Source of the DNA: a virus
Lineage: Duplodnaviria; Heunggongvirae; Uroviricota; Caudoviricetes
IMG/VR virus record: IMGVR_UViG_3300036790_000223
Reading direction: 5' to 3' (one strand)
Length of the DNA stretch: 64,000 nucleotides
Shown in pieces: positions 15,868 to 45,400 of the stretch. The position numbers and the translations under genes were made by a program. Below the pieces are notes generated by a model. That model searched no databases. It worked only from the letters and a program-made list of their open reading frames with translations, and was not told the origin of the DNA. Position 1 is the first letter of the stretch, and every line of letters starts with the position of its first letter.

Positions 15868-16899
15868 GTGCTTTGCTTGGCAGCTGATGAACGCAGGATG
15901 GTTCGACGGTTACTGGGAGCGGCAGTGGTGAATGAGCGAGGCCAGGCAGTGGAGCTAATGCTCCCGGGGGCAGACGTCGCCCGCCGGGAGGAGTGGCTGG
16001 CGGCTCGCCGCGCTGGCATCACTGCCTCAGAGATCGGCGTCATCCTTGGCTACTCGTCTTACACCTCTCCCTTCTCCCTGTACTGGGAGAAGAAGGGGCT
16101 GCTGGATGACGCATCACCCGACACCCGGATGGCCCTGGGCACCTACCTGGAGCCGTTCATCTGCGACCAGTTCGCTGAAAGGTACCCCGAGTATGCAGTG
16201 GTGCAGGTGGGGCTCTCGTGCCGCCGGGACCGCATGTGGCAGATGGCTACCTTCGACCGGGTAGCCATCCCCGCCGACCCCGCCAGCGATCCGCTGCTGT
16301 CTGATCCGGTGCCGGTGGAGGCTAAGACCTACTCCACCTACGAGGGCTGGGGACCGGAGGGCTCGCTGACCGTGCCCCCGGCCTACTGGTGCCAGGTGCA
16401 GTGGCAGATGGACGTGCTCGGGGCGAGCTACGGCTACCTGGTGTGCTTGTTTCTGCTCAACCAGGAGATCCGGGTCTACGAGCTGCCCCGTGACGACGAA
16501 GACCTGGAGGCCATGCGGAGCGCCGCGCTGGAGTTCCGCCGCCTGCTGGCGGACGACGAGTACCCGCCCATCGACGGCTCTGCCTCCACGGCGGCCACGC
16601 TGCGTGGGCTGTACGACCGCTCCGATGCGGGGGAAGCAACGCTTGGCCCGGCGCTGGTGCGCAGCTACTACGCTGCCCAGCGCAACTACCGGCTAGCTGA
16701 CCGGCGCAAAAAGCTGATCGACAACCGGGTGCGCGCTGCGCTCGGTGAGGCCAGGTTCGGCCGGGACCGCCGAGGCCGCAAGGTTGTCACCCGCAGCAGC
16801 TACAAGGTCGGATCTCACATGGTGAACGCCTTTGCGGTGGACAAGCTGCTGGCTTCTCGTGAGGCTGACCCGTACAGAAAGGAACAGGAAGATGGGTGA
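15868..16899 (+). CDS. YqaJ-like (RecE/lambda-Exo-type) recombination exonuclease
   Basis: GITASEIGVILGYSSYTSPFSLYWEKKG YqaJ signature; start may be internal (ATG ~15958). Confidence 0.8.
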   Translation: MLCLAADERRMVRRLLGAAVVNERGQAVELMLPGADVARREEWLAARRAGITASEIGVILGYSSYTSPFSLYWEKKGLLDDASPDTRMALGTYLEPFICDQFAERYPEYAVVQVGLSCRRDRMWQMATFDRVAIPADPASDPLLSDPVPVEAKTYSTYEGWGPEGSLTVPPAYWCQVQWQMDVLGASYGYLVCLFLLNQEIRVYELPRDDEDLEAMRSAALEFRRLLADDEYPPIDGSASTAATLRGLYDRSDAGEATLGPALVRSYYAAQRNYRLADRRKKLIDNRVRAALGEARFGRDRRGRKVVTRSSYKVGSHMVNAFAVDKLLASREADPYRKEQEDG

Positions 16900-18019
16900 G
16901 ATAGCCCGCCGGGTCTCTGAGAGGGCTGAGGCACCGGCTCAGCTGGTACGGCACTACGCCGGGAACTGGGTGATGCCCCGGCATGTCGGGCAGGAGATGT
17001 TCATCCAGCTGGCAGCGGGCATGCTGGACAACGATCCCCAGCTGGCGAACGCCGCGATGGCTAACCCAGCCTCGTTTCTGGCCGCACTGCGCGAGTGTGC
17101 CCGCCTTGGTCACATGCCCGGCACCGACGCCTACGCCATCGTCCCGTTCCGCAACGGCGGAGCGCCGGGTGGCTGGGAGATCGTCGGGATCGAGCAGTAC
17201 CAGGGCGAGATCGAGCGCATGTACCGGGCAGGCCAGGTCACCACGGTCAAGTGTGAGGTGGTGCGGGAGCACGACACCTTCGCCTGGAACCCGGGCACGA
17301 TGGTGGTGCCGCGTCACGAGTACGACGCCCTGGCTGACGTAGCCGACCGGGGTGAGCTGATAGCGGTCTACGCCTACGCCAAGTTCCGCAATGGTGAGTT
17401 CAGCCAGGTGATCGTGATGGCCAAGTCTGAGGTCATGCTGCACCGGGCTGAGGCAAAGACCAAGAAGATCTGGGACGGCCCGTTTGAGCCAGCCATGTGG
17501 CGTAAGACCGCCGTGCATGAGCTGGAGAAGTGGGTGCCGTCATCCAGTGAATGGCTGGTGCTCCCGCCTGGTTCGGTCATCACAGGCGAACCCGACTCCG
17601 CTGCCCCGAACGACATAGCCCAATCCGTCGCCCCTCCGACCACCCAGGCCAACGCACTGCAGCCCAACGCCGACAGCCCAAGCCTCCCCACTCCAGCCCG
17701 GCGCGACTGGAGCGCCTTTGCCTCCCCGGCGCAGCTCGGTGAGCTGAGCAACCTGCTGGAGGAGCTGGGTCACCCCACTAAGGCAGCCCGGCTGGACGTC
17801 TGTGAGCAGATAGCTGGTCGTGAGCTGACCGGTGAGCGTTACCCCGGGCGCAGCTCAGGTAACCTCAGCCGGGCCGAGGCAGCTACCCTTATAGCCACCC
17901 TGGCCAGCTGTGGTGGTGACCCGGCTAACCTCCGGGCACTGCCGGAGATGGGGGGTGACGATGAGCAGGCTGACGCTAGCGATCACGCTAGCGACGACGC
18001 CAGCGCTCAACCGCACTGA
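16892..18019 (+). CDS. recT: RecT-family ssDNA annealing protein
   Basis: RecT-like core (AYAIVPF..., KSEVMLHRAEAKTKKIWDGPFEPAMWRKTAVHEL); ATG overlaps YqaJ stop (ATGGGTGA). Confidence 0.85.
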   Translation: MGEIARRVSERAEAPAQLVRHYAGNWVMPRHVGQEMFIQLAAGMLDNDPQLANAAMANPASFLAALRECARLGHMPGTDAYAIVPFRNGGAPGGWEIVGIEQYQGEIERMYRAGQVTTVKCEVVREHDTFAWNPGTMVVPRHEYDALADVADRGELIAVYAYAKFRNGEFSQVIVMAKSEVMLHRAEAKTKKIWDGPFEPAMWRKTAVHELEKWVPSSSEWLVLPPGSVITGEPDSAAPNDIAQSVAPPTTQANALQPNADSPSLPTPARRDWSAFASPAQLGELSNLLEELGHPTKAARLDVCEQIAGRELTGERYPGRSSGNLSRAEAATLIATLASCGGDPANLRALPEMGGDDEQADASDHASDDASAQPH

Positions 18020-24483: not shown

Positions 24484-25719
24484 ATGGACCTGCCCCCCAA
24501 CGACCTCCAAGCCGAGCAGGCCACCCTGGGCTCGATGCTGCTGTCCGCCAACGCCCTGGAGACGGTGCGGCAGACCCTGTCCTCACCCGACTTCTTCCGC
24601 CCTGCCCACCAGATCGTGTTCGAACACATCACCGAGATGCACAAGCAGTCCATCCCGGTGGATGCGGTCACCCTGAACGAGCGGCTGGTGGCGTCGGCCC
24701 AGATCGCCAAGGTGGGCGGTGCCCCCTACCTGCACACCCTGCTCGCCAGCGTCCCGACTGCCGCCAACGCAGGCCACTACGCCCGGATTGTGCGGGCCAA
24801 GGCGGTGCGCCGCCGCCTGATCGAGGCTGGTACCCGCATTGCCCAGATCGGCCGGGAGGGTGAAGACGAAGCGCAGGGTGCGACCGAGCGTGCCCTGCGT
24901 GAGGTGGAAGCCGTCCGGGACTCCGGCCTGGGTGACGGGCTGACAGCGGTCACCTACCAGGAGTTCCTGGACGCAGGGTACGAAGGTGACCCCTACGACT
25001 GGGTGGTGCCGAACCTGCTGGAGCGGGGCGACCGGATGATCCTGACCGGCACCCCCGGCATCGGGAAGTCCACCTTGTTCCGGCAGATTGCGGTCTGTGC
25101 TGCGGCTGGCATCCACCCGTTCACCTACGAGGCCATCCCGGCGCAGCGGGTGTTCATCCTGGACTGCGAGAACGGCCCAGCCCACATCCGCCGTAAGCTG
25201 CGCCCCCTGGTGCATCAGGCTGCCGCCACCCAGAAGCCAGTGCCGGAGGCCAACTTGTGGATCGAGTCCCGCATGGACGGGATCGACCTGGCTCTGGACA
25301 AAGACGTCAGCTGGCTGCTGCGCCAGGTGGCCAGCCTGAACCCGGACATCCTGGCCATCGGCCCGCTGTACCGGCTGGCCCCCAGGGCGCTGAACGACGA
25401 CGACGACGTGGCCCCGATCCTGACCGTGCTCAACCTGATCCGGGCACGGGGGGCGTGCGTGCTGATGGAGGCCCACCACGGGCACACCTCCGACATGCGG
25501 CCCAGGGGCAGCTCGGCCTTGATGGGCTTCCCGGAGTTCGGGTTCGGGCTGCGCTGGCCCCGCGAAGACAACCCCGGAGCCCGGACGGCAGAGATTGTGC
25601 ACTGGCGAGGAGACCGGGATGAACGGCAATGGCCCCGGGCACTAATTGCCGGGGGCCGCTGGCCGTGGTCGGCATATAATGTACCCCAGAACCAACAAGG
25701 GAATGGATGGGGAACATGA
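24484..25719 (+). CDS. DnaB-like replicative helicase (DnaB N-domain + RecA-like P-loop core)
   Basis: DLQAEQATLGSMLL..FFRPAHQIVFEHI N-domain; ILTGTPGIGKST Walker A; FILDCENG. Confidence 0.8.
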   Translation: MDLPPNDLQAEQATLGSMLLSANALETVRQTLSSPDFFRPAHQIVFEHITEMHKQSIPVDAVTLNERLVASAQIAKVGGAPYLHTLLASVPTAANAGHYARIVRAKAVRRRLIEAGTRIAQIGREGEDEAQGATERALREVEAVRDSGLGDGLTAVTYQEFLDAGYEGDPYDWVVPNLLERGDRMILTGTPGIGKSTLFRQIAVCAAAGIHPFTYEAIPAQRVFILDCENGPAHIRRKLRPLVHQAAATQKPVPEANLWIESRMDGIDLALDKDVSWLLRQVASLNPDILAIGPLYRLAPRALNDDDDVAPILTVLNLIRARGACVLMEAHHGHTSDMRPRGSSALMGFPEFGFGLRWPREDNPGARTAEIVHWRGDRDERQWPRALIAGGRWPWSAYNVPQNQQGNGWGT

Positions 25720-26006
25720 ATGAGCAGCCAAAGATTCCGCCCAGTCCGCCTGAATACCGTTACGAGAATGCGCTGAAGTGGATCCACCTGGTCGCTGGCC
25801 TGCATTACTTTGGCGGAGCCTTCGACCCGGAGCACATGCGAACACTGGCGAATGTGGCCGCCGACGCGCTGGCCGGGTCGAAGGAGCTGCCCGACTTCGA
25901 CGAGTCGCAGGAGCGCAGCAGGCGGAAGGCCAGCGAGTGGGCTGAGGCTCTCGGGCTGAGTCTGGTGGACGAGGATGACGAGGCTGAGACGACCGCCGCA
26001 AGGTGA
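25707..26006 (+). CDS. hypothetical protein
   Basis: 99-aa ORF. Confidence 0.45.
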   Translation: MGNMNEQPKIPPSPPEYRYENALKWIHLVAGLHYFGGAFDPEHMRTLANVAADALAGSKELPDFDESQERSRRKASEWAEALGLSLVDEDDEAETTAAR

Positions 26007-26320
26007 GCGCAGCTGAGGAGGTCTCCCGTGCGGTAGCCCGGTTCCGGGCACAGAACAACGCTGAGCCTGGCCAGGTCTGGGACCCGGGCACTGGCCGCTA
26101 CCGCACGGGAACGCTGGAGGCATTCGCAGGCAGCGACGTCGGCACCAGCTACAAGAGCGGGATCAAGTGCCAGGCGGTAGCCTCAGCACCATACGTACCG
26201 AACGTGCGCGGGGACCAGCCACTGGCCCGTGAGGCGTGTGGTTGCCGCACATGCAGTGCCGAACTGGAGGACCTCAGTGAAAGGCGCAATCGCTTACCTC
26301 CGGCAGCTGATAGGGCGTAG
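26003..26320 (+). CDS. hypothetical protein
   Basis: 105-aa ORF. Confidence 0.45.
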   Translation: MSAAEEVSRAVARFRAQNNAEPGQVWDPGTGRYRTGTLEAFAGSDVGTSYKSGIKCQAVASAPYVPNVRGDQPLAREACGCRTCSAELEDLSERRNRLPPAADRA

Positions 26321-26357
26321 GCTAACGCCCAAACAGGAAAAGGAAGAGGAAAACGTG

Positions 26358-26918
26358 ATGGACAGAGAAAAGATGCGTCACCGTTATGTGCAGGGCGAGG
26401 GCCGCAATTGCTCCAAGTGCAACCTGGTGCACACCATCGTGCCCCGCAGCGAGGTGCTGGATGAGCTGGCGGCGGTGTGGAACGCCGGTACCCACTGGTT
26501 CACCCCGGCCACCGGGCAGATGCTGCTGACCGCTGCGGAGTACATGGAGAACGTGGCCGACATGCTTTACCTGGATGCACCGGAGAGCTGCCTGGTGATC
26601 AGCCCGCCGCTGATGGACTACTACGTCTGCCAGCTGCCCGAGGTGCTGCCGCCGGATCTGGCGTCGGGCATCTTCACCGTCCCGGTCACCACCCCGCGTG
26701 AGAAGATGGCCCTGGCCTTCCCGGGTCACTTCGGTGATGACGGGGAGGGTCTGGAGGCCATGCCTGAGGACGCCAAGGTCCTGGTGCCCATCGGGGAGGG
26801 GGAGACCAAGGCCGGGTTCTCGCCCCTGATGCTGGACGTGATGGCCTGGGCTGACCCAGGCATGGCGATGGAGGTGGCCGAGTGGCTGGCCGCCAACCGT
26901 GTGGAACCACCCGAGTAA
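26358..26918 (+). CDS. hypothetical protein
   Basis: ATG after AAAAGGAAGAGGAAAACGTG RBS-like stretch; 186 aa. Confidence 0.5.
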   Translation: MDREKMRHRYVQGEGRNCSKCNLVHTIVPRSEVLDELAAVWNAGTHWFTPATGQMLLTAAEYMENVADMLYLDAPESCLVISPPLMDYYVCQLPEVLPPDLASGIFTVPVTTPREKMALAFPGHFGDDGEGLEAMPEDAKVLVPIGEGETKAGFSPLMLDVMAWADPGMAMEVAEWLAANRVEPPE

Positions 26919-26927
26919 CCCGTTTAC
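26915..26927. promoter_or_regulatory. GTAAACGGGTTAC motif copy (minus orientation)
   Basis: Intergenic between 26918 and 26988. Confidence 0.4.
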
Positions 26928-26987
26928 AAAAGGGCGGTCAGCGAGTACGCTTACCGCAGGGAAGGGAACTACGGAAGGGAAACCACC

Positions 26988-27311
26988 ATGGCTGCTGAGC
27001 ACAAGATCCTCAACACCCAGCAGGTTCTGGAAATGGCAGCCGCTGCCATCGACCACGACTTCAACCGTCAGCTGCCCACCGAGGTCATGCTGAAGCTGGA
27101 CGTCGATAAGTACCACATCGCGGTGCCCCGGCTGTTTGACCACACCCGCAACCGCGAAGGCGACCCCATGCACCACCGGGTCGAGCTGTTGCTCGGGCTG
27201 AAGGACCGCCGCGAGCCCGCACGTGTCTACCTGGACATTGCTGACGAGGACTGGGCCGGGTTCCCCTCGGCGGAAGAGGTCCTGGAGCGTGTCCGCGCAG
27301 AGGGGACGTGA
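26988..27311 (+). CDS. hypothetical protein
   Basis: 107-aa ORF. Confidence 0.45.
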   Translation: MAAEHKILNTQQVLEMAAAAIDHDFNRQLPTEVMLKLDVDKYHIAVPRLFDHTRNREGDPMHHRVELLLGLKDRREPARVYLDIADEDWAGFPSAEEVLERVRAEGT

Positions 27312-27317
27312 ACCTCC

Positions 27318-27749
27318 GTGCGCTTTGATGACGACGAGTCCGGTGGGGTTAGCTTCACCGGAACTCAGGCAGGGATGACCAACCAGCAGCGGGCAAAGGT
27401 ACGCGAGCTGCTGGTCGGCCTCGACCCGATGTGGGTTCACGCAGGTGACTGCCTGGGGGCCGACGCCCAGTTCATCGAAATCGTGGAAGAGGCCCTGCCG
27501 TCTGCCCAGACGTGCGGTCACCCGCCAGACGACGGGTCCAAGCGCGCCTTCTGCCGGTATGACTTCACGCAGCCGGAGGCGCCGTACCTGGAGCGGAACT
27601 GGGACATCGCGGTTCACGGCCGGGTCCTTATCGCGACCCCCAAGGAGCCGCAGGAGGTTCTGCGCTCTGGAACGTGGTCCACGGTCCGCTACGCCCGCAA
27701 GCTGGGCAAGGAAATCTTCATCGTCCGCCCCGACGGGACGCTGGCATGA
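27318..27749 (+). CDS. hypothetical protein (possible SLOG/Rossmann-like)
   Basis: VHAGDCLGADAQFIEIVEE...; assignment weak. Confidence 0.4.
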   Translation: MRFDDDESGGVSFTGTQAGMTNQQRAKVRELLVGLDPMWVHAGDCLGADAQFIEIVEEALPSAQTCGHPPDDGSKRAFCRYDFTQPEAPYLERNWDIAVHGRVLIATPKEPQEVLRSGTWSTVRYARKLGKEIFIVRPDGTLA

Positions 27750-27940
27750 AGACCATGGGCAGTTCGGTCCCGGCCTTCTGGAAGGGATTCACCGAAGGCT
27801 GGGCTGGCCGCCTGAACCACGAGCAGGTGGCGGTCAACCGCCGCGACCTGGAGCTGGTGATGCACTCGGTGAGCGTGGCACCCTGGGAAGACCCAGCGCT
27901 GCGCGGTGCGGTCAGGCGACTGCGGGAGGCACTCAAATGA
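27746..27940 (+). CDS. hypothetical small protein
   Basis: ATGA-overlapped chain of small genes. Confidence 0.4.
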   Translation: MKTMGSSVPAFWKGFTEGWAGRLNHEQVAVNRRDLELVMHSVSVAPWEDPALRGAVRRLREALK

Positions 27941-28272
27941 GGGGCCACCTGGTTGACGTGGGAACCGTGTACGGCTCGGCGGAGGAAGACATGGCTTACG
28001 CAAGGATCGGCTGGGACTCTGATGTCTACGTCTTCTCCGATGGCAAGATGCTGGGCTGCTACGGCTGCTGCCTCCACGGGCAGGCCATCAACGGCTACTT
28101 CGTGGACCACGCTTACCCCGATGCTCCGGTGCTCATGGCAGCGCACCTGACCCACCACCGCGAACATGGCGACAAAGTGCCAGACCACACATTTGAACGA
28201 CTGAGCGAAGAGGCTCTCCACCCCAGACAGGAACAGGAACAGGAAGAATCGGACCATGCCAAACCAGACTGA
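27937..28272 (+). CDS. hypothetical protein
   Basis: 111 aa; ATGA overlap. Confidence 0.45.
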   Translation: MRGHLVDVGTVYGSAEEDMAYARIGWDSDVYVFSDGKMLGCYGCCLHGQAINGYFVDHAYPDAPVLMAAHLTHHREHGDKVPDHTFERLSEEALHPRQEQEQEESDHAKPD

Positions 28273-29437
28273 ATTCCAGTGGTTTCAGCCACGAGCCCCC
28301 GACGACGACCAGGAGACCCTGGTCCTGCCTAAGGGCTGGCTGGCCGCACCGCACCGCCGCATCGTAGCGCTGGTGCCTGCCCACAACGAGGCAGCAGACA
28401 TCGCCGCGACCATCGAGTCGCTGCTGCATCAGACCCGCAAGATCGACGACATCGTGGTGGTGTCGGACAACTCGACCGACGCCACGGTGGACATCGCCTG
28501 CATGTATGACGTGACCGTGCTGGAGACGGTGGACAACACCCGCCGTAAGTCTGGTGCGCTCAACTACGCCTGGCACACCCGTGCCCGTGAGGCCGACATC
28601 GTGGTCTGCATCGACGGCGACACCCAGCTGCCAAAGCACGCGGTGGCCGACTGGGAGCGCGAGTTCGCCATGAACCCGCAACTGGGTGGCTCATCCAGCC
28701 AGCCCATCATGACCGGGTACGGATTCCTGCCCCGGTTGCAGCGGTTCGAGTTCTCCAAGAGCGTGCAGATGTCCCTGGCTCGTGGCTGGTGCCGCGTGGT
28801 CTCCGGGACTGGCTGTGCCTACCGGGGTGCTGCGCTGGCCGAGGCAGCCCGGCGCCCGGGGCAAGTTGGCCCGTGGACGTATGAGTCGGTGGTGGAGGAC
28901 TACCACCTGACCTACCGCATGCGCCAGGCCGGGTGGCATTGCGAGATGTCACCCACCGTGTGGTGCTGGACCGGCTCGATGACCTCGATCAAGGCCCTGT
29001 GGTACCAGCGCATCAAGTGGCAAGCCGGTACCTGTGCTGACTTGCTCACCTTTGGCTTCAACCGGCTGAACTGGCGCGAGTGGATGCAGCAGGGGTTCAT
29101 GCTGCTGTGCATTGCGTTCTGGGTGGTGTGGCTGTCGCTCAACGGCACCCAGGTAGCGACCGGCGGCTTCCACTTCAACCCGTTCTGGCAGTGCATCCCG
29201 CTGATCTTCGCGGCTATGGAGGTGATCCACGTCCGCATGATGCCGGAGCGCGACTGGAAGGACTACCTGCTCGCTGGCTGCCTGGTGCAGATGACGGTGT
29301 ACGCGATCCTGTCGACGGCGTGGGGCTCGGCCAGCTGGGTCAAGGTGCTGCGGGCCAAGATGGGCGACCTGTGGGCGCCGCAGTACCGCGCTGAGGGCAT
29401 GGCGGCTGAGGACATGAAGATCGGGGTGGGAGCATGA
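28256..29437 (+). CDS. processive family-2 glycosyltransferase (membrane-embedded synthase type)
   Basis: LVPAHNEA..SLL; VVSDNSTD; VVCIDGDTQL (DxD); QRIKW (QxxRW variant); 4-5 C-terminal TM helices. Confidence 0.8.
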   Translation: MPNQTEFQWFQPRAPDDDQETLVLPKGWLAAPHRRIVALVPAHNEAADIAATIESLLHQTRKIDDIVVVSDNSTDATVDIACMYDVTVLETVDNTRRKSGALNYAWHTRAREADIVVCIDGDTQLPKHAVADWEREFAMNPQLGGSSSQPIMTGYGFLPRLQRFEFSKSVQMSLARGWCRVVSGTGCAYRGAALAEAARRPGQVGPWTYESVVEDYHLTYRMRQAGWHCEMSPTVWCWTGSMTSIKALWYQRIKWQAGTCADLLTFGFNRLNWREWMQQGFMLLCIAFWVVWLSLNGTQVATGGFHFNPFWQCIPLIFAAMEVIHVRMMPERDWKDYLLAGCLVQMTVYAILSTAWGSASWVKVLRAKMGDLWAPQYRAEGMAAEDMKIGVGA

Positions 29438-30507
29438 CCCCGAACGTGACCTTCCGGCGGCGCATGCTGATCGCTGCCATGGCGGCCTTCGCGGTGGTGA
29501 TGATCGGCGTGGCTGCGGCGGTAACGAGTGCGGTGATCTCACAGCGCCCGGCCCCGCTGCCCGCTGCGCACGCACTGGCCAGCTACTCCCGGGTGCCCAT
29601 GCACTACATCGCGCACGCTCCGGCTGACGCGGTGCCGGTGCTGGTCTACCACGAGATGAACAACGGCTGCGCTGCCACCGCACCCACCTGCAAGACCGCC
29701 AAGGACTACGAGACGGTCTCCACGGCGCAGTTCCGGGCTGAGATGGCCTGGATGTATGCCCACGGGTACCACACCGTCACCGTGAGCCAGTACCTGGCCT
29801 GGGTGGCTAACCGGGATACCCCGCTGCCCACCCGTCCGTTCCTGATCACGGTGGACAACGGGATTGCAAACTTCCTGGAGGGCGCACAGCCCATCTTGTG
29901 GCACTACCGCTACACCGCGACGGCGTTCTTGGTCACCGGGTTTGCCGATGCGGCCTCAGGCCAGTGCGCACCGCACATCATGGGCGTGAACGTCCAGCCT
30001 GGCTGCCCCGTATCCAGCAGTTACTGGGATGCAACCTGGCAGCAGCTGGAGGCCCTGAGCCCGGCGGTGTATAACTTCGGCATCGAGGCCGGGGCATCGG
30101 GCCACTACGTGCAGAACTACAACCACCACTGCCCGGCCTTCAACGCTTGCCTGCTGCCGGGTGAGACCTTCGCCCACTATGTGGCACGGGTCAAGCACGA
30201 GTATGCCGCTGGCATGGAGCAGATCCGCTCGCACCTGGGGAACCGCTTTGACCCGGGAGCCTGGGTGGTGCCGTACTCCGATCTCGGCTACCCCTGCCGC
30301 CCGGTTAGCTGCGCACTGGAAGCACACAACGACCATGGCTGGCTGATGGGGTTCGCGGCCCGGTGGTTCAAGGTCGCCTTTGTGCAGGACGCCTACCGCA
30401 ACGGCATCCGCCACGAGCGTTACCGCTACGAGGTGCATGCCACCACCACCTTGCGCGCATTCCGCGCAGCCCTTAACCGAGAAATGGGGGCCTTCAGATG
30501 GGCGTAA
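29434..30507 (+). CDS. polysaccharide deacetylase-like (CE4/NodB-type) with N-terminal TM anchor
   Basis: VLVYHEMNN, FLITVDNGIANFLE resembling TFDDG; His-rich; ATGA-coupled to the GT2. Confidence 0.6.
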   Translation: MTPNVTFRRRMLIAAMAAFAVVMIGVAAAVTSAVISQRPAPLPAAHALASYSRVPMHYIAHAPADAVPVLVYHEMNNGCAATAPTCKTAKDYETVSTAQFRAEMAWMYAHGYHTVTVSQYLAWVANRDTPLPTRPFLITVDNGIANFLEGAQPILWHYRYTATAFLVTGFADAASGQCAPHIMGVNVQPGCPVSSSYWDATWQQLEALSPAVYNFGIEAGASGHYVQNYNHHCPAFNACLLPGETFAHYVARVKHEYAAGMEQIRSHLGNRFDPGAWVVPYSDLGYPCRPVSCALEAHNDHGWLMGFAARWFKVAFVQDAYRNGIRHERYRYEVHATTTLRAFRAALNREMGAFRWA

Positions 30508-30691
30508 TCGAATGCGCACGCATCTTTCTGTACGCAACCACGATCCTGACGTTCGCCCTGGCGCTGACGACGATGCCCCGGCCGCGTGCACTCCGCAAGA
30601 GAAGTCGGTAGGGCGCCGCAAGGCCCTGGGCCTGTTGTTCGGGGCGGCGGCTAGTACACTGCTCGCGTCAGACACGAGAGGATTGGATTGC

Positions 30692-31498
30692 ATGGCAGCA
30701 CGTACCCGTACGGCGGCTGGCACCGCAGCAGCCGCAGCCACCCAGCCCGTTTGCAGCTGGGGGTCGCCCGCATCCACGCACCAGCCCCCGGCGGTCACTC
30801 CTCCGCCTGCCCCACCGTCTACCACGTTCACGTTCTTTGACGAGTTCAACGGTGCAGCCGGTTCACTGCCCGACGCCACTAAGTGGCTCTGGGATACCGG
30901 CCCCGGCCAGACCGTAGGCGGCAACAACGAGACCGAGGTCTACGTCAAGTCGGCCGCCAACTCCTACCTGGACGGCAACGGCCACCTGGTGATCGCGGCT
31001 ACGGCCTCAGGCACCACGCTCAACTCCGCCCGGATGAAGAGCAACTTCCATCAGCTGTTCGGCCACTGGGAGGCCAGCATCGCGGTCCCCAACGTGCCGG
31101 GCTGCTGGCCCGCGTTCTGGTTCCTGGGTCAGGGATCGTGGCCGGGCAGTGGCGAGATCGACGTGATGGAGAACTACGGCACCGGCTTCACCGAGGGCAC
31201 GATCTGGAACAGCACCGCCAGCGCCAGTAAGAGTGGCCGGGCGTCGAACCAGATGGACGGCGGGTTCCACACCTACCGGATGGACTGGGCGAAGGGGTCG
31301 GTGCAGTTGTTCTTCGACGGCACCCTCTACGCCTCAGCCACCTCCAGCAGCCTGACCCCGTGGCCGTTTGACACCAACGGGGGCAGCTACTGCCTGCTGA
31401 ACATCGCCACCAACGGCACCGGTACCGGCGGAGTGAGCCCGAATAAGGCTCTGCTGCCCGCGAAGATGCTGGTTGATTACGTGCACTGCTGGACGTAG
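30692..31498 (+). CDS. GH16-family beta-glucanase-like protein
   Basis: GSGEIDVMENYG catalytic motif (ExDxxE); start uncertain (ORF opens at 30380). Confidence 0.75.
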   Translation: MAARTRTAAGTAAAAATQPVCSWGSPASTHQPPAVTPPPAPPSTTFTFFDEFNGAAGSLPDATKWLWDTGPGQTVGGNNETEVYVKSAANSYLDGNGHLVIAATASGTTLNSARMKSNFHQLFGHWEASIAVPNVPGCWPAFWFLGQGSWPGSGEIDVMENYGTGFTEGTIWNSTASASKSGRASNQMDGGFHTYRMDWAKGSVQLFFDGTLYASATSSSLTPWPFDTNGGSYCLLNIATNGTGTGGVSPNKALLPAKMLVDYVHCWT

Positions 31499-31507
31499 AG
31501 AAAAGCG

Positions 31508-31553
31508 CCGCATAGCTTACCGCACTGCATCCCCTGCGCGGTAAGCTATGCGG
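31508..31553 (+). terminator. hairpin with 16-bp perfect arms after GH16 gene
   Basis: CCGCATAGCTTACCGC ... GCGGTAAGCTATGCGG. Confidence 0.45.
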
Positions 31554-31606
31554 GTAGGACCCCCGCCATAGGGGGAAGGAAGGGAATCAAGGGAAAGGAA
31601 GCAGGA

Positions 31607-32506
31607 ATGGTTTGGTTCGTTATTGCGATCATCCTCGCCGTGGTGGCTATCTGCGCCCTGATCTACGGGCTCGCTGCGGACGAGAAGGCCGGTGGCATTG
31701 CGCTGGCGGTCCTGTGTGGCGTCCTGGCGTTCGGGGTGTTCCTCATTTCCATTTCACGCGAGGTGCCTACCCGCTCTGTGGGTGTGCCGACCGCGTTTGG
31801 CAAGGTGGAGCCCCCGCTGCGTCCTGGTGTGCACTTTGGGGTGGCCCCGTGGACGAAGGTGAACATCCTGGATGAGACCATCCAGACCACCACGTTCGAG
31901 GGTAAGGACTGCCTGGACGTGCGCATCGGTGGCCAGCAGACCGCCTGCCTGGACGCAACCATTCAGTGGCGCGTGCTGGATTCAGGTGCCTCCGGCCTGT
32001 TCAACGACTACAACGGTGATGGCCCCTCGATCATGAGTGCCATCACCGACGCTGTGGTCATCCGGGAGCTGAAGCAGACCGTCAACAACGTTCTGGGGGA
32101 CTACAACCCCATCCAGGACGTAGCGGCCAACGCCACAGCAGGCAACAGCCAGTTCTCCACCTTTGGTCCTGTGGTCCTGCGCGACATGCGCACGGACCTG
32201 ACGGGCCGGGTGCAGGTGCTGAATGTGCTGATGCCATTGCTGCGCTACGACAACGCCACCCAGCAGCGGCTGAACCAGATTCAGCAGCAGTACGGGGAGA
32301 CGGCCATCGCCAAGCAGCAGATCATCACCAACGAGGCGCAGAACGAGGCCAACTCCAAGATCTCGGCCTCGCTGTCGCATGATCCGGGAGTGCTGCAGTA
32401 CCAGTGCCTGCAGATCGCCCAGACCGCCATCAAGGCTGGGGACAGTTCGGTGCAGCCGGGCTGGTGCTTCGGCTCCTCCGGTGTGATCGCCAACACCGGC
32501 AAGTAG
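31607..32506 (+). CDS. SPFH/band-7 (prohibitin/HflK-like) membrane protein
   Basis: N-terminal TM then SPFH core and coiled-coil tail; 299 aa. Confidence 0.75.
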   Translation: MVWFVIAIILAVVAICALIYGLAADEKAGGIALAVLCGVLAFGVFLISISREVPTRSVGVPTAFGKVEPPLRPGVHFGVAPWTKVNILDETIQTTTFEGKDCLDVRIGGQQTACLDATIQWRVLDSGASGLFNDYNGDGPSIMSAITDAVVIRELKQTVNNVLGDYNPIQDVAANATAGNSQFSTFGPVVLRDMRTDLTGRVQVLNVLMPLLRYDNATQQRLNQIQQQYGETAIAKQQIITNEAQNEANSKISASLSHDPGVLQYQCLQIAQTAIKAGDSSVQPGWCFGSSGVIANTGK

Positions 32507-32607
32507 GGCGCCACAAAGACCGCTCAGGGGGGTGGCTGGTGATCTGGAATAGGGGGGCGCCAGCCACCTCCATGAGCGTAGGATAAGGAAAAGGAAGGGA
32601 AATTGAG

Positions 32608-34029
32608 TTGAACGCCGCAGAGATCATCGCGGCCATGGGCGAGTTCGTCCCGCCAGGCCGCATCCAGCTGGACCCGTCGCAGCAGGCAGGCTTGCTGGCC
32701 TACACCGCTGACCTGTGTGATGCCAGCCCGAACGCCGAAAGTGAACGCCAGCGTTACCGCAGCGTGATCAGCCGCCAGATCCCCATGGACGAGGTCATGC
32801 TGCGGCACTGGCTGGCCGGTAAGACCATCCTGGTCACCGGGGGCACCGGCTGCATCGGTTCGGCGCTGGTGGGCCAGCTGACCCGCTATGGCGCCGCCCG
32901 GATCGTCAGCGTGAGCCGGGGGCTGACTAGCTGCTGGACCCGCTACAGCTCGGTGGATTACCTGAATGCCGACGTGCGTGACAGCAGCGGGTTGCTGCAG
33001 GTCTTCCGGAAGGTCCAGCCCGACATTGTGTTTCACCTGGCGGCTCAGCGTGAACCCGGTCTGGCCGAGCGTGAGGTGCACCGCACCGTGAGCACCAACG
33101 TGCTCGGTACGGCCAACGTGGCCGACCTGGCCGACTACTTTGGGGTGGCTGAGCTGATCCATGCCTCCACCGGCAAGGCGGTGCGCCCCTACTCCCGTGA
33201 GGTCTACACCGCGTCTAAGCGGGTAGCTGAGTGGGTCCTGGCGCAGACCGCAGCACGGTCGGAGGTGGCCATCGCCGCTGCCCGGTTCACCCACGTGGTA
33301 GACAACGCCGTGGTCTACCGCAACATCCAGCGCGCCGCTGCGGACAACACCACGCTGCGCATTCACGACCCGGGTATCGCCTTCTACGTGCAGTCCGCGC
33401 TGGAGAGCGCTCAGCTGCTGCTGCGGGCGGGGCTCGGGGCTATGTCCGGTGCGCTGAGCATCCTGGCCATCACCGACCTTGGCTGGCCGGTGAGCCTGCT
33501 GGATCTCACGCTCGGCACGCTGACCCACATGGGCACTGCGGCCCCGGTCTACTTCAGCGGGTACGACGCCGGGTATGAGGCGGTGCCGTTCCCGGGCCTG
33601 TATGACCCGCGCACCGCCGGAGACGTCAGTCCGCTGCTGAACTGCTTTGAGGCGCTGACCGTTGCTGAGTACGCCGGAGTGGACACCGCGCTGGCCCGCT
33701 ATGCAGCCTCATCAACGGAGGCAGGGGAGGCCGCCCTGCAGGAGCTGAGGGAGCTGTGTGCCGACACCGAAGACGGCCATGACCTGCGGGTCGGGCTCGA
33801 TATGCTGTTGTGGATAACCCTGGGGGCCACGCTGCGTGCAGCGCCGGAGCGGGCACTGCGGCGCGTGGAGGCCATCGCTGCACCGTTCAAGCAGACCATG
33901 AGCCGGGACTGCCGCCGGATTCTGTCGGCAGTGGAGTACTACGCGCAGAACGGAGAAGGGCGCGGTGCAGGGGCAGCAGGAGTTCACGTGGGCAGTTCCG
34001 TCGATGGAGCGGCTCGTCATCCCTACTGA
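32608..34029 (+). CDS. CapD-like NAD-dependent sugar epimerase/dehydratase (extended SDR)
   Basis: ILVTGGTGCIGSAL Rossmann motif; YTASK catalytic YxxxK; 473 aa. Confidence 0.75.
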   Translation: MNAAEIIAAMGEFVPPGRIQLDPSQQAGLLAYTADLCDASPNAESERQRYRSVISRQIPMDEVMLRHWLAGKTILVTGGTGCIGSALVGQLTRYGAARIVSVSRGLTSCWTRYSSVDYLNADVRDSSGLLQVFRKVQPDIVFHLAAQREPGLAEREVHRTVSTNVLGTANVADLADYFGVAELIHASTGKAVRPYSREVYTASKRVAEWVLAQTAARSEVAIAAARFTHVVDNAVVYRNIQRAAADNTTLRIHDPGIAFYVQSALESAQLLLRAGLGAMSGALSILAITDLGWPVSLLDLTLGTLTHMGTAAPVYFSGYDAGYEAVPFPGLYDPRTAGDVSPLLNCFEALTVAEYAGVDTALARYAASSTEAGEAALQELRELCADTEDGHDLRVGLDMLLWITLGATLRAAPERALRRVEAIAAPFKQTMSRDCRRILSAVEYYAQNGEGRGAGAAGVHVGSSVDGAARHPY

Positions 34030-34549: not shown

Positions 34550-35146
34550 ATGCCAAAGGACAGATACACCGATTACGAGGGTGGCTACTCACCCACCCGC
34601 ACGGGCAACTCGGGCGCCACCATCACTGGCCGGGTTGAGCCCGATCCGCGCCCCCTGCCCGGTAACGTCACCATCATCAAGGGCCACCGCCGGGCCAGCG
34701 AGGTGTCGCGGCAGCGCTACATCTCCCACCTCAACACCCTGCATGCGCAGGGCCACATGAGCGAGCCGGAGTGGCATGCCCGGACCGACGCCGCACAGCA
34801 TGCTGAGGTCGAGGCTGACCTGGGTATGCTGCTGGGCGACCTGCCCCCGCTGCCCATGCCAGAGGAGCAGAAGGAAGCCAAGGCAAGCGCCAAGGCTGCA
34901 AAGAAAGCAGCGAAGGCATCCCTGCCCGGCCGCTGGAAGAGGTGGCCCATCTTGCGGGTGGCGGTCTACATCGCCACGATGGCGACCGGGTGGACCATCG
35001 CGTTCGGCCCGATGTCCTACATCCTCAACCTGAAGCACAACGTGCCGTGGGGGCCGGTTGTCATCACCCCGACGCTGCTCGGTGGCTGGGCCATAGCCAT
35101 CTTCGGGATTGTGCTGATCCTGCACGACTTTGGTGCGGACTGGTAA
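34550..35146 (+). CDS. DUF1707-like membrane protein
   Basis: N-terminal RASE..R..L..L....G.L...E region then 2 TM helices. Confidence 0.55.
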   Translation: MPKDRYTDYEGGYSPTRTGNSGATITGRVEPDPRPLPGNVTIIKGHRRASEVSRQRYISHLNTLHAQGHMSEPEWHARTDAAQHAEVEADLGMLLGDLPPLPMPEEQKEAKASAKAAKKAAKASLPGRWKRWPILRVAVYIATMATGWTIAFGPMSYILNLKHNVPWGPVVITPTLLGGWAIAIFGIVLILHDFGADW

Positions 35147-35158
35147 TACCGTGGCGGG

Positions 35159-35509
35159 GTGGACATCCCCGCAGCGGTGCGCCAGGCGGTCTATGAGCGC
35201 GACAACCGCCAGTGCGTCGGCTGCGGGGTGTCTATCTCGGGTGGCTGGTATTCCATCCAGCACCGGATGGCCCGGGGGACCGGTGGCACTAACGCCTTGT
35301 CCAACCTGGTGCTGCTGTGCGGCTCGGCCACCTCGCCGGGCTGCCACCGCCAGTGTGAAGACCGGCTGACTACCATGCGTGAGCGCGGACTATGGGTACC
35401 CAGCTGGGGCAATCCGGTGGAAACACCTATTACCGCCTGGGATGGGCGCGTAATATACCTCGCAGATGACGGCAGCTGGTCATTCACCATCAGGGAGGAA
35501 CAGGAATGA
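35159..35509 (+). CDS. HNH endonuclease
   Basis: CVGCGV...IQHRMARGTGGTNALSNLVLLC...CH. Confidence 0.7.
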   Translation: MDIPAAVRQAVYERDNRQCVGCGVSISGGWYSIQHRMARGTGGTNALSNLVLLCGSATSPGCHRQCEDRLTTMRERGLWVPSWGNPVETPITAWDGRVIYLADDGSWSFTIREEQE

Positions 35510-36162
35510 GCAAGAAGAAGGAGCCGCAGCCGGTACTGGTGGTGGCATTGCTGGACCGCACCGGATCAATGCAGAGCTGCAAGACCGATATCGAGGGTGC
35601 CTGGACCGCGCTGATCAATGACCAGCGTAAGGAGCCCGGCGAGCTGCGGGTCTCCTTGTATCAGTTTGATCACCACCTGGGCACGATGTGCCTGGACGTG
35701 GTGTATGAGGACAAAGACGTACACGAGGACGGCACTGAGCACCTGGTGCTTACCCCGCGTGGCATGACCCCGCTGTGGGATGCGGTAGGGGTCACCATCG
35801 CCCGCACCGATGCCATCGTGGCCAAGGCCAAGCCCAAGCCCAAAGTCGTACTCGTGGTGATGACGGACGGCCTCAACAACATGTCCCGCGAGTACACCCT
35901 GGCGCAGGTCCGCGCCCTGGTGGAGGCTCGGCAGGGGCAGGGCTGGACGGTGACCTTCTTGGCGGCTGGGCTGGGTGCGGCTGCGCAGGGCGCCGACATG
36001 GGCGTGGCTGGGGCAGCGGTGGTGGACTACGCCGAGGTCGGGCAGGCCGTGAACTCGGCGTCGGCCTACATCTCCCGGGGCCGGGCTGGAGGCCAGTCGG
36101 TGTGGGCGGCGGGCTATACAACCCAGGAGCGCGAAGCGGCGCAGGGAAAGGACGAGGAATGA
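35506..36162 (+). CDS. von Willebrand factor A (vWA) domain protein
   Basis: MIDAS DRTGS ... MTDG; 218 aa. Confidence 0.7.
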   Translation: MSKKKEPQPVLVVALLDRTGSMQSCKTDIEGAWTALINDQRKEPGELRVSLYQFDHHLGTMCLDVVYEDKDVHEDGTEHLVLTPRGMTPLWDAVGVTIARTDAIVAKAKPKPKVVLVVMTDGLNNMSREYTLAQVRALVEARQGQGWTVTFLAAGLGAAAQGADMGVAGAAVVDYAEVGQAVNSASAYISRGRAGGQSVWAAGYTTQEREAAQGKDEE

Positions 36163-42433: not shown

Positions 42434-45400
42434 GTGACCGTCTCCTCCAACGGCACCCCGACTGTCATCGCCGGTATCACTGGCTCAGCAAGCATCAGCG
42501 TCACTGGCCAGTGGCCGACCAACCCGACTGCCCCGGCCGCTGGAGACCTGCTGGTGGCGGTCATCGGCGGGTACGGCACCACTAGCTGCACCGTCCCTAC
42601 AGCTCCGTCTGGGTGGACGCTGTGGAACTGGTGCTACGGCATCACCGCCGGGACCGGCGCCAGGTCCCTGACCACCGTTACCGCCTACTACATCAAGAAC
42701 TCCACCGGGTCCGACACGGTCCCGACGTTTAGCGCCACAACGGCGGGCACTGCAGCCGACAACGGCCTGCGCTGCGTCATCTACGACCTGTCCGACTCCG
42801 GCGGTAGCACCCCGGTTCTGTGGACGGACGGCATCACCGCACTGCCGGTTGCCGGGACTGCGACCGTGTTCACTGGTCCGGTCCCCGCTGGTTCGCTCGG
42901 GATCGCCTCGGCCACGATCTCCCAGGGCACCACTGCAGCCACGAACACGTGGACCACGCCGTCCGGCTTCACCGCAGCCACCGGTAACGAAACCGCGTCG
43001 CTGCGGTCCCAGTTCGGCTCGTTCTATACCTCTTCCGCACCGACCACCGGCAACGGCATGTCTGTGGCCATCGTGCACTCCCGGACTTCCACCGAGCAGC
43101 CCGCGATTGCGCTGGTGGCGGCACCGCCGTCCTCTTCGGGGGTCAGGCGGTTTCAGGCGTCGCCGTACCAGGCACCCACCACCGCCGCTGCAGTGCTCAC
43201 CAGCCATACGTTCGCCGCACAGCCCGACGAGCTGATCGTCGCCTCGGCAGGCGTAGGCAATGGCGTTGGCACCGCGCCGACCAGCCTGGTTGCCGTCGAC
43301 AACACCAGCGCCACCCTGACGGCGCTGGTCACCGAGCTAGCTGGCGCCGACTTCGGCCTGGCGGGGGTCTTCGCCGAAGACGCAGGTGCCACCCCGGCTG
43401 TGACGTCGGTCACGGTTACCGCCGCCCCGTCCACGGTGCACGACCCGTGCCTGGTGGTATACCGGTTCGCCGGGGCGGCGGTAACTGCAGACCAGACCGG
43501 CACCACCGCCCACGGCACCACTGCCACTTTGTCGATTACCCCGGCCCAGACCGGCTCGGTGATCGTCGGTGCGTCCGGTGACGACGGCTCCACGGCACTG
43601 ACCCCGAACGCCAGCAGCCTCGGCTACACCTCCACCACTGGTGGCGCCGGGGACCGCATCAACGCCTACATGGGCCTGGCCTACACCACGGCCTCCAGTG
43701 CGGTCACGGTCGGCTGGTCTACCGCTCCTACCGCGCTCGGCAATGCAGCGGCGGAGATCATCCCCGCTCCTCCCGCAGCTAACCCGGCACCGCTGTACCC
43801 ATTGCGGAGGCCGGTCCGGGCGCAGGCTTTGCCCCGGCGGGGCGGCCGGGTCTACCGGAGCGGTCTGCCTAACCGGATTCTCACCAACAACTTTGAGGGT
43901 GGGTCCTCCGGCACCACCATCACCACCACTAACTCCAACGGGATTAGTGGCGCTGCGTTCGACGTGGTGTCCATCGGCACCAGCGCCACCCTGGCGTTCG
44001 ACAACACTGAGGCTGCGCACGGCCTGCTGTCGATGAAGGTGGCCACGGGCGGCACCTCCACCACGTCCCTGGCTGAGTGGACCTTCTCCGAAGGTCCCCA
44101 GCTGACGATCTACTTCCGGCTGTACCTGTTCCTGTCCGCCACACCGACAGCGGCCATCAGCCCGTTCATGGTCCGCTCCGGCGCGTCTGTGGCAGCCTCG
44201 CTGCTGCTGACCACGCCGGGCACCCTCCAGCTGCGCGACGGCACCAACACCACCCAGGTGACCTTCACCACCCACCCGCCAACTGGGTCCTGGTACCGGA
44301 TCGAGGGTTACGTCACTGGTGCCAGTGGCACTGGTGGCGCGATCTCGGCCAGCCTGTACTCGCCGCTGGACTCGCTGACCCCGGTTGAGACCCACACCGT
44401 CACCGGGATCAACACCACCGGGGCGATCAGCGCCTACTGGTTCGGCCAGGCCAACACCGTCGCCAGCAGTGGTCCGTTCTGGATCGACGACATCGGGATC
44501 TCCCCGGTCGGGTTCCTCGGCCCGGCGGCGTTCCCGCCCGTCACCTCCGGGCCACCGCTGACCGCACTGGACGGTCCGGTCCGCGCACCTGTCCCGGCCC
44601 GCCGTAAGGGTGGCATCGCACGGGCCATGAGCCCGCTGGCGATCTCCTACGCCGGGCCACCGCTGACCGCACTGGCCAGCCCGGTCCAGGGACGCCGCAG
44701 GCCCACCCCACGCGGCCGGGTCTATGGCATCAGCCGCCCCGCAGTCACCGTCGCGCCACCGACCCCAGCGCCGCTGTACCCACTGAGCAAGCCGGTCCGT
44801 GCGGTCATCCCAGCCCGCACCCGGGGTGGCCGGGTCTACCAGACGACAGCCCCTACGGTCCCCGCCATCCAGACCGGCGCAGCGCCGTGGTACCTGTTCC
44901 CCACGTTCCCGCAGTGGACGGTGCTGGAGTCGTCTACCGGGCTGCTGCCTGCCGTAGCCATCATGAACAACGGCAACGGCGACGTTGTCTGGGATTCGAC
45001 CTGGGGTGCTCTCGCTACTGCCCTGCATGCCAAGGGCATCAAGCTCCTCGGTTACGTCTACACGCAGTTCGGCACCCGGCCCGAGGGTGACGTTGAGACC
45101 GCCATCGGCAACTACCTCCAGCCTGGGTTCACCCCTGGCCTGGACACCGTTGACGGTATCTTCTTTGACCAGTTCAACAACCTGACCGGCAGCGAGTCCT
45201 ACTACAACGACCTCTGCATCTCGGTCAAGAGCCAGTTCGAGGCGGTCGGCTCCGGCGCGAACAGCCCTCTGATCTGGGGCAACCCGGGCACGGCTATCGC
45301 TGCGTCCTACCTGACGCTGCCCATCGACGTGTTTGTCACGTTCGAGGGTCCGATCACCGCCTACCAGAACTTCACCCCGTTCAACGTCAACGCCTCGGGG

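Follow-up and report, generated by a model that had tools for sequence, protein, structure and literature searches.

Synthase-dependent exopolysaccharide systems are known from bacteria, and polysaccharide synthases of viruses are known from the chloroviruses, whose hyaluronan and chitin synthases coat the infected algae with fibres (PMC5408694). The purpose of that polymer is debated, and the exclusion of other viruses is among the proposals (PMC5408694). Here I describe a gene cassette in a stretch of 64,000 nucleotides from a tailed phage (Caudoviricetes; IMG/VR record IMGVR_UViG_3300036790_000223), hereafter called the window, in which a membrane-bound glycosyltransferase of family 2 (GT2) is followed by a protein with the fold of the deacetylase PgaB, a microprotein, and a glycoside hydrolase of family 16 (GH16; Table 1). 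On balance, I regard it as probable that this is a phage-borne, synthase-dependent surface-glycan cassette which remodels the envelope of the host. In the literature I found no prior description of a phage cassette that combines a synthase, an outer partner, a microprotein and a hydrolase.

An earlier note on this DNA, made from the sequence alone, had named five genes, i.e. the GT2, a deacetylase, a GH16 glucanase, an SPFH protein and a CapD-like short-chain dehydrogenase/reductase (SDR). That these are real genes, and genes of a phage, is borne out: all five open reading frames (ORFs) are located as noted on the plus strand, they have a coding-type G+C content at third codon positions (GC3) of 0.82-0.87, the G+C content of the window being 64-67%, and hallmark phage genes are present in the same window (RecE/RecT, 15868-18019; a DnaB-type helicase, 24484-25719; the large terminase, 59479-61023). 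A chance origin of the gene set is ruled out by the E-values given below together with the recurrence of the set in about 20 independent loci. The cassette is situated among the replication genes, not among the structural genes. When the 5.8 kb cassette region was compared by megablast with the phages in GenBank (50,697 deposited records), zero matches were obtained, i.e. it has no close DNA relative there; the PgaB-like protein has an identical copy on a metagenomic contig of 116.8 kb. Neither an integrase nor a repressor was found among the window ORFs scanned.

Table 1. Features of the cassette region in the window, with their amino acid agreement with the sister contig L029 (JGI 3300037258, 9601 bp).
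Feature	Position	Strand	Characteristics	Comparison with L029
GT2	28256..29437	+	393 amino acids; minimal cellulose-synthase-like membrane GT2, by Pfam, fold and motifs	Residues 1-194 identical; residues 195-393 (mostly transmembrane region) hold all 21 differences
PgaB-like protein	29434..30507	+	Membrane-anchored, PgaB/IcaB-type CE4 fold; ATGA-coupled to GT2	52.8% identity
Microprotein	30498..30611	+	MGVIECARIFLYATTILTFALALTTMPRPRALRKRSR; 37 amino acids, single transmembrane helix, basic tail; ORF absent from the earlier note	About 64% identity (hand count from translations)
GH16	30512..31498	+	Exported endo-beta-1,3-glucanase (laminarinase) type; motif EIDVME; Tat-like signal RRKALGLLFGAAAS from 30614	97% identity
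Stem-loop 1	31505..31555	+	Directly 3' of the GH16 stop; -34.1 kcal/mol, z = -5.8, 0/200 shuffles as stable	
SPFH/Band-7 protein	31607..32506	+	Pfam Band_7 7e-14; phrog_200 1e-33; loosely associated accessory	100% identity
Stem-loop 2	32521..32578	+	Between SPFH and SDR genes; -42.7 kcal/mol, z = -3.95, 0/200 shuffles as stable	
SDR	32608..34029	+	Extended SDR, Polysacc_synt_2 (PglF/CapD); variable accessory gene	99.5% identity

The first product of the cassette matches GT2 families, with Glycos_transf_2 in Pfam at 1e-17. In an alignment of 45 homologues the residues D75, D120, D122, E214, D215, Q251, R252 and W255 are invariant, and the motifs to which most of them belong, DGD (120-122), VED (213-215) and QRIKW (251-255), are invariant or almost so. 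The AlphaFold (AF2) model (pLDDT 89.7) consists of a cytoplasmic GT-A domain, an interface helix (245-266) bearing the QRIKW motif, and three C-terminal transmembrane helices (273-301, 309-327 and 334-365), with none at the N-terminus. A Foldseek search with this model returned the Chlorella-virus hyaluronan synthase first (Cv-HAS, 7sp7; 3e-15, TMq 0.66), followed by XlHAS1 of Xenopus, PcManGT, the chitin synthases Chs1 and Chs2 of yeast and Candida, and BcsA, with a probability of 1.00 for Cv-HAS, XlHAS1, Chs1, Chs2 and BcsA. A profile search of the PDB sequences gave mostly generic matches to the N-terminal GT-A part, and among the curated models neither BcsA nor CrdS reached E < 0.01. The GT2 is hence of the synthase type, with D, DxD, ED and QxxRW, the complete set of catalytic motifs of processive, inverting beta-glycan synthases. 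The earlier note had read this gene as a membrane GT2 with DxD and QRIKW motifs and multiple transmembrane helices, and the alignment, the model and Foldseek agree with it on this. The ATGA coupling that it described is present as well, the GT2 stop codon overlapping the next ATG (29434-29437).

The PgaB-like product of that next gene has a single transmembrane helix, at its N-terminus (residues 12-30), and its family has at least four invariant cysteines; because of this anchor and the conserved cysteines, the domain is predicted to face outward. No Pfam family matched it at E <= 0.01, including Polysacc_deac_1 (PF01522)/NodB, and the precomputed Pfam domains on 120 listed homologues comprise none except an unrelated PF16656 on one of them (P0097). 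Its sole NCBIfam matches are the PgaB/IcaB models (PgaB N-terminal region, 3.7e-17). With the AF2 model (pLDDT 91.4), Foldseek placed the N-terminal domain of Escherichia coli PgaB, a distorted (beta/alpha) barrel, first (3vus; 7.8e-13, TMt 0.76), and further matches were Aggregatibacter PgaB, PplD, IcaB, BpsB and BA0330 (including 4u10, 4wcj, 5bu6 and 6dq3). Alignment to PgaB by hhalign has a probability of 97.9%, anchored by TWQQL/TWQQV and FGIEAGASG/YGIQANATG.

The defining features of carbohydrate esterases of family 4 (CE4) are an Asp and a His for catalysis and a His-His-Asp triad that binds the metal (PMC5855634). The catalytic base is kept in the phage protein (D141, equivalent to PgaB D114), and so is the catalytic acid (H73 in the motif VLVYHE, equivalent to PgaB H55 and aligned to the His of BpsB and PgaB), both being invariant. 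In contrast, the metal-ligand Asp (PgaB D115) is replaced by N142, an Asn that is invariant in 38 sequences, and the two motif-2 His ligands, PgaB H184 and H189, correspond to A211 (or P210) and to N214 or a gap, according to hhalign and hmmsearch. As judged from these alignments, all three CE4 metal ligands are absent across the family. The family has invariants of its own, E218 and H224 in addition to D141 and N142, and therefore it is not simply decaying. What had been proposed as a membrane-anchored CE4-like deacetylase hence keeps its anchor, its PgaB/IcaB fold and its catalytic Asp141 and His73, while the metal Asp has become Asn, the motif-2 His pair is gone and a Pfam NodB domain is lacking; canonical, metal-dependent de-N-acetylation is not supported by the residues present. 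Since there is no CE4 metal site, the PgaB-fold domain would rather act by binding or by non-canonical chemistry.

The PgaB-like family is small and almost entirely metagenomic: a search of 5.8 billion proteins gave 132 matches, and there are 62 cluster representatives at E <= 1e-30. By tblastn, the deposited phage records contain no homologue, the only matches being genuine pgaB genes in bacterial-like records. The longest of the top profile matches (P0241-P0243; metagenomic, 596-1211 amino acids) were considered as fusions to a GT2 and were rejected, as they turned out to be surface proteins of bacteria in which PgaB-like domains stand in tandem. Each of them has two domains of this metal-site-less family, the second being more degenerate, and the two longer proteins also have multiple Big_3_5 Ig-like repeats, an arrangement which hints that the domain binds rather than catalyses.

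The ATG of the microprotein sits within the last codons of the PgaB-like gene, to which the microprotein is thus coupled in turn. Homologous ORFs of 34-57 amino acids, with a transmembrane helix and a LPRPK/RRRR tail, are found 3' of the PgaB-like gene in most phage-like loci, so that most loci with a GT2 and a PgaB-like gene have one, and in metagenome-assembled genomes (MAGs) they come after the GT2. The latter order is also found in cultured phages (TinyMiny gp66, AWGoat gp76 and Cantare gp96), which have a GT2 of 42-45% identity without a PgaB-like gene. The microprotein is kept where no GH16 follows (L007 and L024), and GC3, counted by hand, is about 75% in its frame versus about 61% in the overlapping frame of the GH16. 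No homology to IcaD or PgaD was apparent, a dedicated comparison not having been made; by analogy with these, the microprotein is a candidate for a small synthase subunit.

The GH16 matches its Pfam family at 2.5e-15 (56.8 bits, cut-off 22), and its closest solved relatives are the actinobacterial endo-beta-1,3-glucanase 2hyk (4e-33) and also 9vmv, 3atg, 4pq9 and Rv0315 orthologues. The motif EIDVME aligns with GEIDIMEN of 2hyk, and E-x-D-x-x-E is kept in 10 homologues, so the ExDxxE glucanase of the earlier note is confirmed as a family member; these relationships point to activity on bonds of the beta-1,3-glucan type. Against the phages, tblastn gave only weak matches, which lie in minor tail proteins of cultured Curtobacterium phages.

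The sugar that the cassette would handle was first read differently. The earlier note had seen the gene logic of a PgaC-PgaB or NodC-NodB pair (IcaA-IcaB being of the PgaC-PgaB type), by which poly-beta-1,6-GlcNAc (PNAG) or chito-oligosaccharides are made and partly de-N-acetylated by a CE4 enzyme, and there are reasons for this: of the curated families, PgaC_IcaA fits the GT2 best (TIGR03937 equivalog, 1.4e-28), the PgaB and IcaB models are the only ones for its partner, whose top structural matches are likewise PgaB, IcaB and BpsB, the relatives of the SDR all act on UDP-GlcNAc, the catalytic base and acid are kept, and an Asp-to-Asn exchange at the metal position also occurs in active CE4 enzymes of the PdaA type (PMC5855634). 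However, the GT2 reaches 100 bits with PgaC_IcaA, over residues 35-293 only, against a cut-off of 422.3 bits, and 17.6 bits with the NodC model. These scores place it outside the PgaC/IcaA equivalog, and an identification as PgaC or NodC is not supported. PgaC carries N-terminal transmembrane helices, and none is predicted in the phage GT2. Moreover, the three metal ligands are absent family-wide and PF01522 does not match, and the conserved hydrolase is of the laminarinase type rather than a GH153, GH20 or GH18. With the metal triad absent and a laminarinase-like GH16 that does not fit, the logic of PNAG or chito-oligosaccharide synthesis with partial de-N-acetylation is not supported in its original form, and I consider this explanation doubtful.

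A seroconversion of the Gtr type is less probable still. The GT2 would then be a non-processive polyprenyl-phosphate sugar transferase, similar to GtrB or DPMS, and a lipid-linked sugar would decorate a wall polymer that the host already has. The enzyme is small, PcManGT and DPMS are among its structural and sequence matches, a weak PHROG match links its N-terminal GT-A half, and only this half, to GtrB-like O-antigen conversion (1.3e-8), and one relative of the cassette (L008) has a PMT_2 (GT-C-like) gene. On the other hand, the phage GT2 has the interface helix and the invariant ED and QxxRW motifs that typify GT2s of the synthase type, features not known from GtrB or DPMS; the best folds are hyaluronan, chitin and cellulose synthases, and the cassette in the window has no GT-C or GtrA-like gene.

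The comparison with the sister contig L029, made over window positions 24487-33708, shows where the cassette varies. The two sequences are 99-100% identical over 25.6-28.8 kb and 31.6-33.7 kb, while between about 28.8 and 30.6 kb the nucleotide identity is only 57-79%, with sharp edges, and an indel of about 170 nucleotides lies at the hairpin after the GH16 gene. The swapped block corresponds exactly to the membrane part of the GT2, the PgaB-like gene and the microprotein, i.e. the membrane-embedded or outward-facing part of the cassette. This suggests that the three pieces co-vary as interacting, surface-exposed specificity determinants, and the pattern is as expected if they form one complex that is under diversifying pressure as a specificity determinant.

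The pairing of a GT2 with this partner, as claimed for the phage, is well supported by related loci, as the two genes adjoin each other in about 20 of the 22 loci with a PgaB-like gene (L018 being cut by the contig end). A GH16 gene lies 3' of the pair in L008, L013, L023, L026, L027, L028 and L029, and about 1.4 kb 3' in L018. The core unit recurs in otherwise unrelated phage contigs of 60-170 kb and in chromosomes of Actinomycetota MAGs. Outside the cassette, the flanks of the related loci have nothing in common with the window; as only the cassette genes are common to unrelated phage flanks, the cassette appears to move as a unit. In one relative it is located beside integrase and serine-recombinase genes, near lysis and tail genes, which is a typical position for lysogenic conversion. 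The pair of GT2 and PgaB-like genes is also present in chromosomes of uncultured Actinomycetota and Acidimicrobiia MAGs, and in one Actinomycetota MAG it stands in a non-prophage chromosomal context, beside gyrAB, dnaN and a sortase gene. This chromosomal context points to a host origin of the cassette.

Some of these loci are peculiar in themselves. In the MAG locus (L004, 8611-9759, and L015; CAVTRI010000002.1), the GT2 beside gyrAB and dnaN has an in-frame stop at the conserved Trp of KALWxQRxKW, two residues before QxxRW, and is either a pseudogene or the product of a long-read assembly error; the adjoining microprotein of 57 amino acids ('MYGT'), the PgaB-like gene and the sortase gene are intact. 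L008 (7790-16120; JGI 3300081967, a contig of 167 kb) has an expanded cassette of GH16, GT2, PgaB-like gene, a 38-amino-acid ORF, GH16, the PMT_2 gene, a second GT2 of 511 amino acids and a third GH16. An apparent fusion of PgaB-like protein and GH16 in L013 (653 amino acids) was rejected, because a stop codon separates what are two adjacent genes.

It could be argued that the hydrolase is the only part that matters, i.e. that the GH16, and perhaps the PgaB-like protein, degrades a host glucan for release or entry, and that the GT2 is an incidental passenger from the host. The GH16 enzymes are hydrolases with weak likeness to the Curtobacterium minor tail proteins, the cassette is of probable host origin, and a GH135-like domain elsewhere in the window (see below) suggests that the phage handles host exopolysaccharide. 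Yet no element is more widely conserved than the GT2, which is intact in the phage contigs and keeps its catalytic residues invariant; its translation is coupled to that of its partner, cultured phages carry it with the microprotein and without any GH16, and the allele swap covers its membrane part, implying selection on the GT2 itself. I therefore hold this explanation to be improbable. Glycosylation of the virion, as in some mycobacteriophages with capsid or tail proteins glycosylated by phage glycosyltransferases, is very unlikely: actinophages have been reported to encode glycosyltransferases tied to it, and the GT2 homologues in cultured phages are annotated merely as 'glycosyltransferase', but here the enzyme sits in the membrane and has synthase motifs, virions are put together in the cytoplasm while the partners, judged by membrane anchor, conserved cysteines and Tat-like signal, are extracytoplasmic, and the cassette lies among replication rather than structural genes.

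Remodelling of the host envelope is still the most plausible purpose, and it could proceed as follows. Expression of the cassette would coincide with that of the early and replication genes in this uncultured phage of Actinomycetota. At the inner membrane face, the GT2 would polymerise a UDP-sugar, and it would thread the beta-linked chain outward through a channel or complex formed by its three helices together with those of the microprotein and the PgaB-like protein, functionally like IcaA with IcaD, PgaC with PgaD or BcsA with BcsB. Outside the membrane, the PgaB-fold domain would receive, guide or modify the chain, and the GH16 would trim, release, transglycosylate or cross-link it. Where present, the SDR would supply a C4-modified nucleotide sugar and the SPFH protein would scaffold the membrane site. 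As a result, the infected cell, or the lysogenised cell in the case of temperate relatives, would carry a glycan coat specified by the phage, with receptor masking, exclusion of other phages or altered aggregation as its most plausible effect.

As for the polymer, I favour a beta-1,3-containing, glucan-type chain as the leading, though uncertain, candidate, with the loss of the deacetylase metal site counted as a clue in this direction beside the laminarinase-type GH16; a product of some other kind is a weaker candidate, and a GlcNAc-based chain weaker again. More tentatively, soil Actinomycetota phages might possess a self-contained exopolysaccharide machine of a new type, in which a three-helix synthase, a one-helix microprotein, a CE4-derived outer subunit that has lost metal catalysis and a dedicated GH16 coat the infected or lysogenised cell, with the outer parts swapped as alleles among near-identical phages.

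Several points weigh against a synthase-dependent coat. The sugar clues conflict, with PgaC/IcaA, PgaB/IcaB and PglF/CapD speaking for GlcNAc and the GH16 for beta-1,3-glucan, and given the missing metal ligands the role of the PgaB-like protein would be left undefined. I know of no characterised channel-forming synthase with as few as three transmembrane helices, and PcManGT, structurally the nearest small protein to the GT2, is not established as an exporter of polymer; the product of the GT2, and even its processivity, is what I infer from its relatives. No promoter was detected for the cassette, the consensus scan having found no promoter-like and one terminator-like element where about 1 and 3.6, respectively, are expected by chance, which makes the scan uninformative, and no cassette protein matches a PADLOC defence family.

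Finally, the GH16 has two candidate starts, ATG 30512 and ATG 30692. The former is the only upstream ATG and overlaps the microprotein ORF by 100 nucleotides in another frame; no canonical start codon lies between it and TTG 30635. The latter gives a GH16 of 268 amino acids, a length equal to that of the gene call in L029. The N-terminal extension is not conserved in the GH16 frame, the in-frame Tat-like RRKALG signal has counterparts in other loci, and both the microprotein and the GH16 frame are open in L029. The overlap might represent dual coding, reinitiation or a frameshift fusion, each of which is possible.

The SPFH and SDR genes, which the earlier note had included in a single module, do not belong to the core. 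They are separate units, and two strong hairpins, which the earlier note had not mentioned, partition the region into [GT2, PgaB-like gene, microprotein, GH16], [SPFH] and [SDR]; the first hairpin is likely a factor-independent terminator or a processing site that closes the core operon. They are also variably present, an SDR gene being found near the core in L007, L009/L010, L024, L025 and L029, and a Band_7 gene within a few kb only in L009/L010, L028 and L029. Taken by itself, the SPFH protein was correctly recognised, with 52.7 bits for Band_7 against a cut-off of 23.6 and two N-terminal transmembrane segments (1-19 and 31-49); it has no relative of solved structure. The SDR matches Polysacc_synt_2 (PF02719, 2.5e-31; 109 bits, cut-off 20.2) and has the Rossmann motif TGGTGCIGS, in keeping with a CapD-like family member, and its closest relative in the PDB is PglF/WlaL (1e-24), PglF being a UDP-GlcNAc 4,6-dehydratase. 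The Asp of the PglF motif STDKA is needed for 4,6-dehydration. In the phage SDR this motif, STDKAV in PglF, aligns with STGKAV, so that the Asp is replaced by Gly, and a classical Tyr is present in YTASK instead; STGKA and YTA[ST]K are conserved in its phage homologues (5 loci, 4 distinct sequences). Because the dehydration Asp is replaced, a role as epimerase or oxidoreductase is more likely than the dehydratase half of the earlier proposal, and from its motifs the protein is probably a C4 oxidoreductase or epimerase for nucleotide sugars.

Other parts of the window deserve mention. Just 3' of the cassette, on the plus strand, the product of 34550-35146 is DUF1707/SHOCT-like and has a hydrophobic C-terminal part that probably spans the membrane, and that of 35506-36162 is vWA-like (phrog_7371, 4e-45); between them lies an ORF (35159-35509) with zero Pfam matches, which I take to be an HNH-type nuclease; no connection of these three ORFs to the cassette was found. 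At 42434-47068 on the plus strand, a Thr/Ala/Gly-rich ORF of 1544 amino acids contains a Spherulin4 (GH135/Sph3-like) domain (residues 818-1045, 5e-23) and more than 12 copies, counted by eye, of a repeat resembling PL.PL..PV[RK]A..KLPPRGRVY; nothing in PHROG matches the ORF. Its product may be an exopolysaccharide hydrolase, secreted or associated with the virion, and the phage may then both make and cut surface glycans. A cluster of the DNA-hypermodification type at 52600-57690 (plus strand) comprises an amino-acid:DNA transferase (ADDT, 52600-53721), a pyridoxal-phosphate-dependent enzyme (54277-55125) and a Tet/JBP 2-oxoglutarate/iron dioxygenase (56467-57690), with a DUF932 gene close to it on the minus strand (49158-50198). 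An AAA+ ATPase of 535 amino acids at 2204-3811 (minus strand; phrog_10440, 3e-58) has weak similarity in PADLOC to IetA and TRIP13.

If the cassette is functional, phages would write a new glycan onto the surface of their host, which would bear on competition between phages, on host range and on the aggregation of actinobacteria in soil. It would also provide a very small, genetically tractable synthase complex in which to study the passage of polysaccharide through a membrane, and a CE4-fold family with a rebuilt active site. If there is indeed an exopolysaccharide machine of a new type, the exchange of alleles would fit a coat that decides which competing phages, or predators, recognise the cell, and such coats would be a new class of superinfection-exclusion determinant. 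These questions are directly testable, as pairs of GT2 and microprotein are present in cultured phages of Microbacterium, Arthrobacter and Brevibacterium.

The nearest functional analogues of the cassette are IcaAD(B)/PgaCD(B) and BcsA-BcsB-BcsZ and, among viruses, the hyaluronan and chitin synthases of chloroviruses. With IcaADBC/PgaABCD it shares a GT2 whose best curated match is the PgaC/IcaA branch, a candidate for a small membrane partner, an outward protein of the PgaB/IcaB fold, a tightly coupled operon and an associated hydrolase activity. It differs in that the phage GT2 is far under the family cut-off and lacks N-terminal transmembrane helices, the PgaB-like protein has neither the Asp-His-His triad nor a GH153 domain, the microprotein is a single-helix protein, a laminarinase-type GH16 takes the place of the hydrolase, and the whole is carried by phages. 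The BcsA-BcsB and CrdASC (curdlan) systems also combine a GT2 with a single-pass, outward, non-catalytic partner (BcsB) and with an endoglucanase in the operon (BcsZ), and their beta-glucan product would match the specificity of the phage GH16; however, the phage cassette has no PilZ/c-di-GMP module, three transmembrane helices instead of eight, and a partner with the CE4 fold rather than that of BcsB.

For single components there are further parallels. PcManGT from Pyrobaculum, described as a 'minimal cellulose-synthase-like fold' (6yv7), has a size and architecture similar to those of the GT2 and is its best full-length match to the PDB at the sequence level (TMt 0.66 structurally), but this archaeal enzyme is a mannosyltransferase for which neither partner proteins nor a secreted polymer are known. 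Non-catalytic or atypical CE4 proteins, such as BA0330/BA0331 of Bacillus anthracis and the MurNAc deacetylases of the PdaA type, share the CE4 fold and a non-canonical motif 1 with the PgaB-like protein, PdaA being without the metal-binding Asp (PMC5855634); PdaA retains both histidines, whereas in the PgaB-like family all three ligands are replaced and the protein is always paired with a GT2. The Gtr and Oac cassettes of seroconverting phages are likewise phage-borne and mobile, alter the surface glycan of the host and block superinfection, and the cassette of one relative near an integrase adds to this likeness; in contrast to the cassette described here, they modify an existing O-antigen via lipid-linked sugars and GT-C enzymes, with no synthase-type polymerase.

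The hyaluronan synthase and chitin synthase of chloroviruses (PBCV-1 A98R and CVK2 CHS) differ in that their host is eukaryotic, their genes do not form an operon, partners of the CE4 fold or of the microprotein kind are lacking, the sequence identity to the phage GT2 is only 14-15%, and the hyaluronan synthase has more transmembrane helices and a channel of its own. Yet in chloroviruses, as is proposed for the phage, a processive GT2 of the virus makes an extracellular polysaccharide on the infected cell, sugar-nucleotide enzymes are encoded by the virus alongside, many chloroviruses encode polymer-degrading enzymes, and Cv-HAS is the top structural match of the phage GT2; if phages do coat their hosts in this way, their cassette would be the bacterial-virus counterpart of the chlorovirus hyaluronan and chitin coats.

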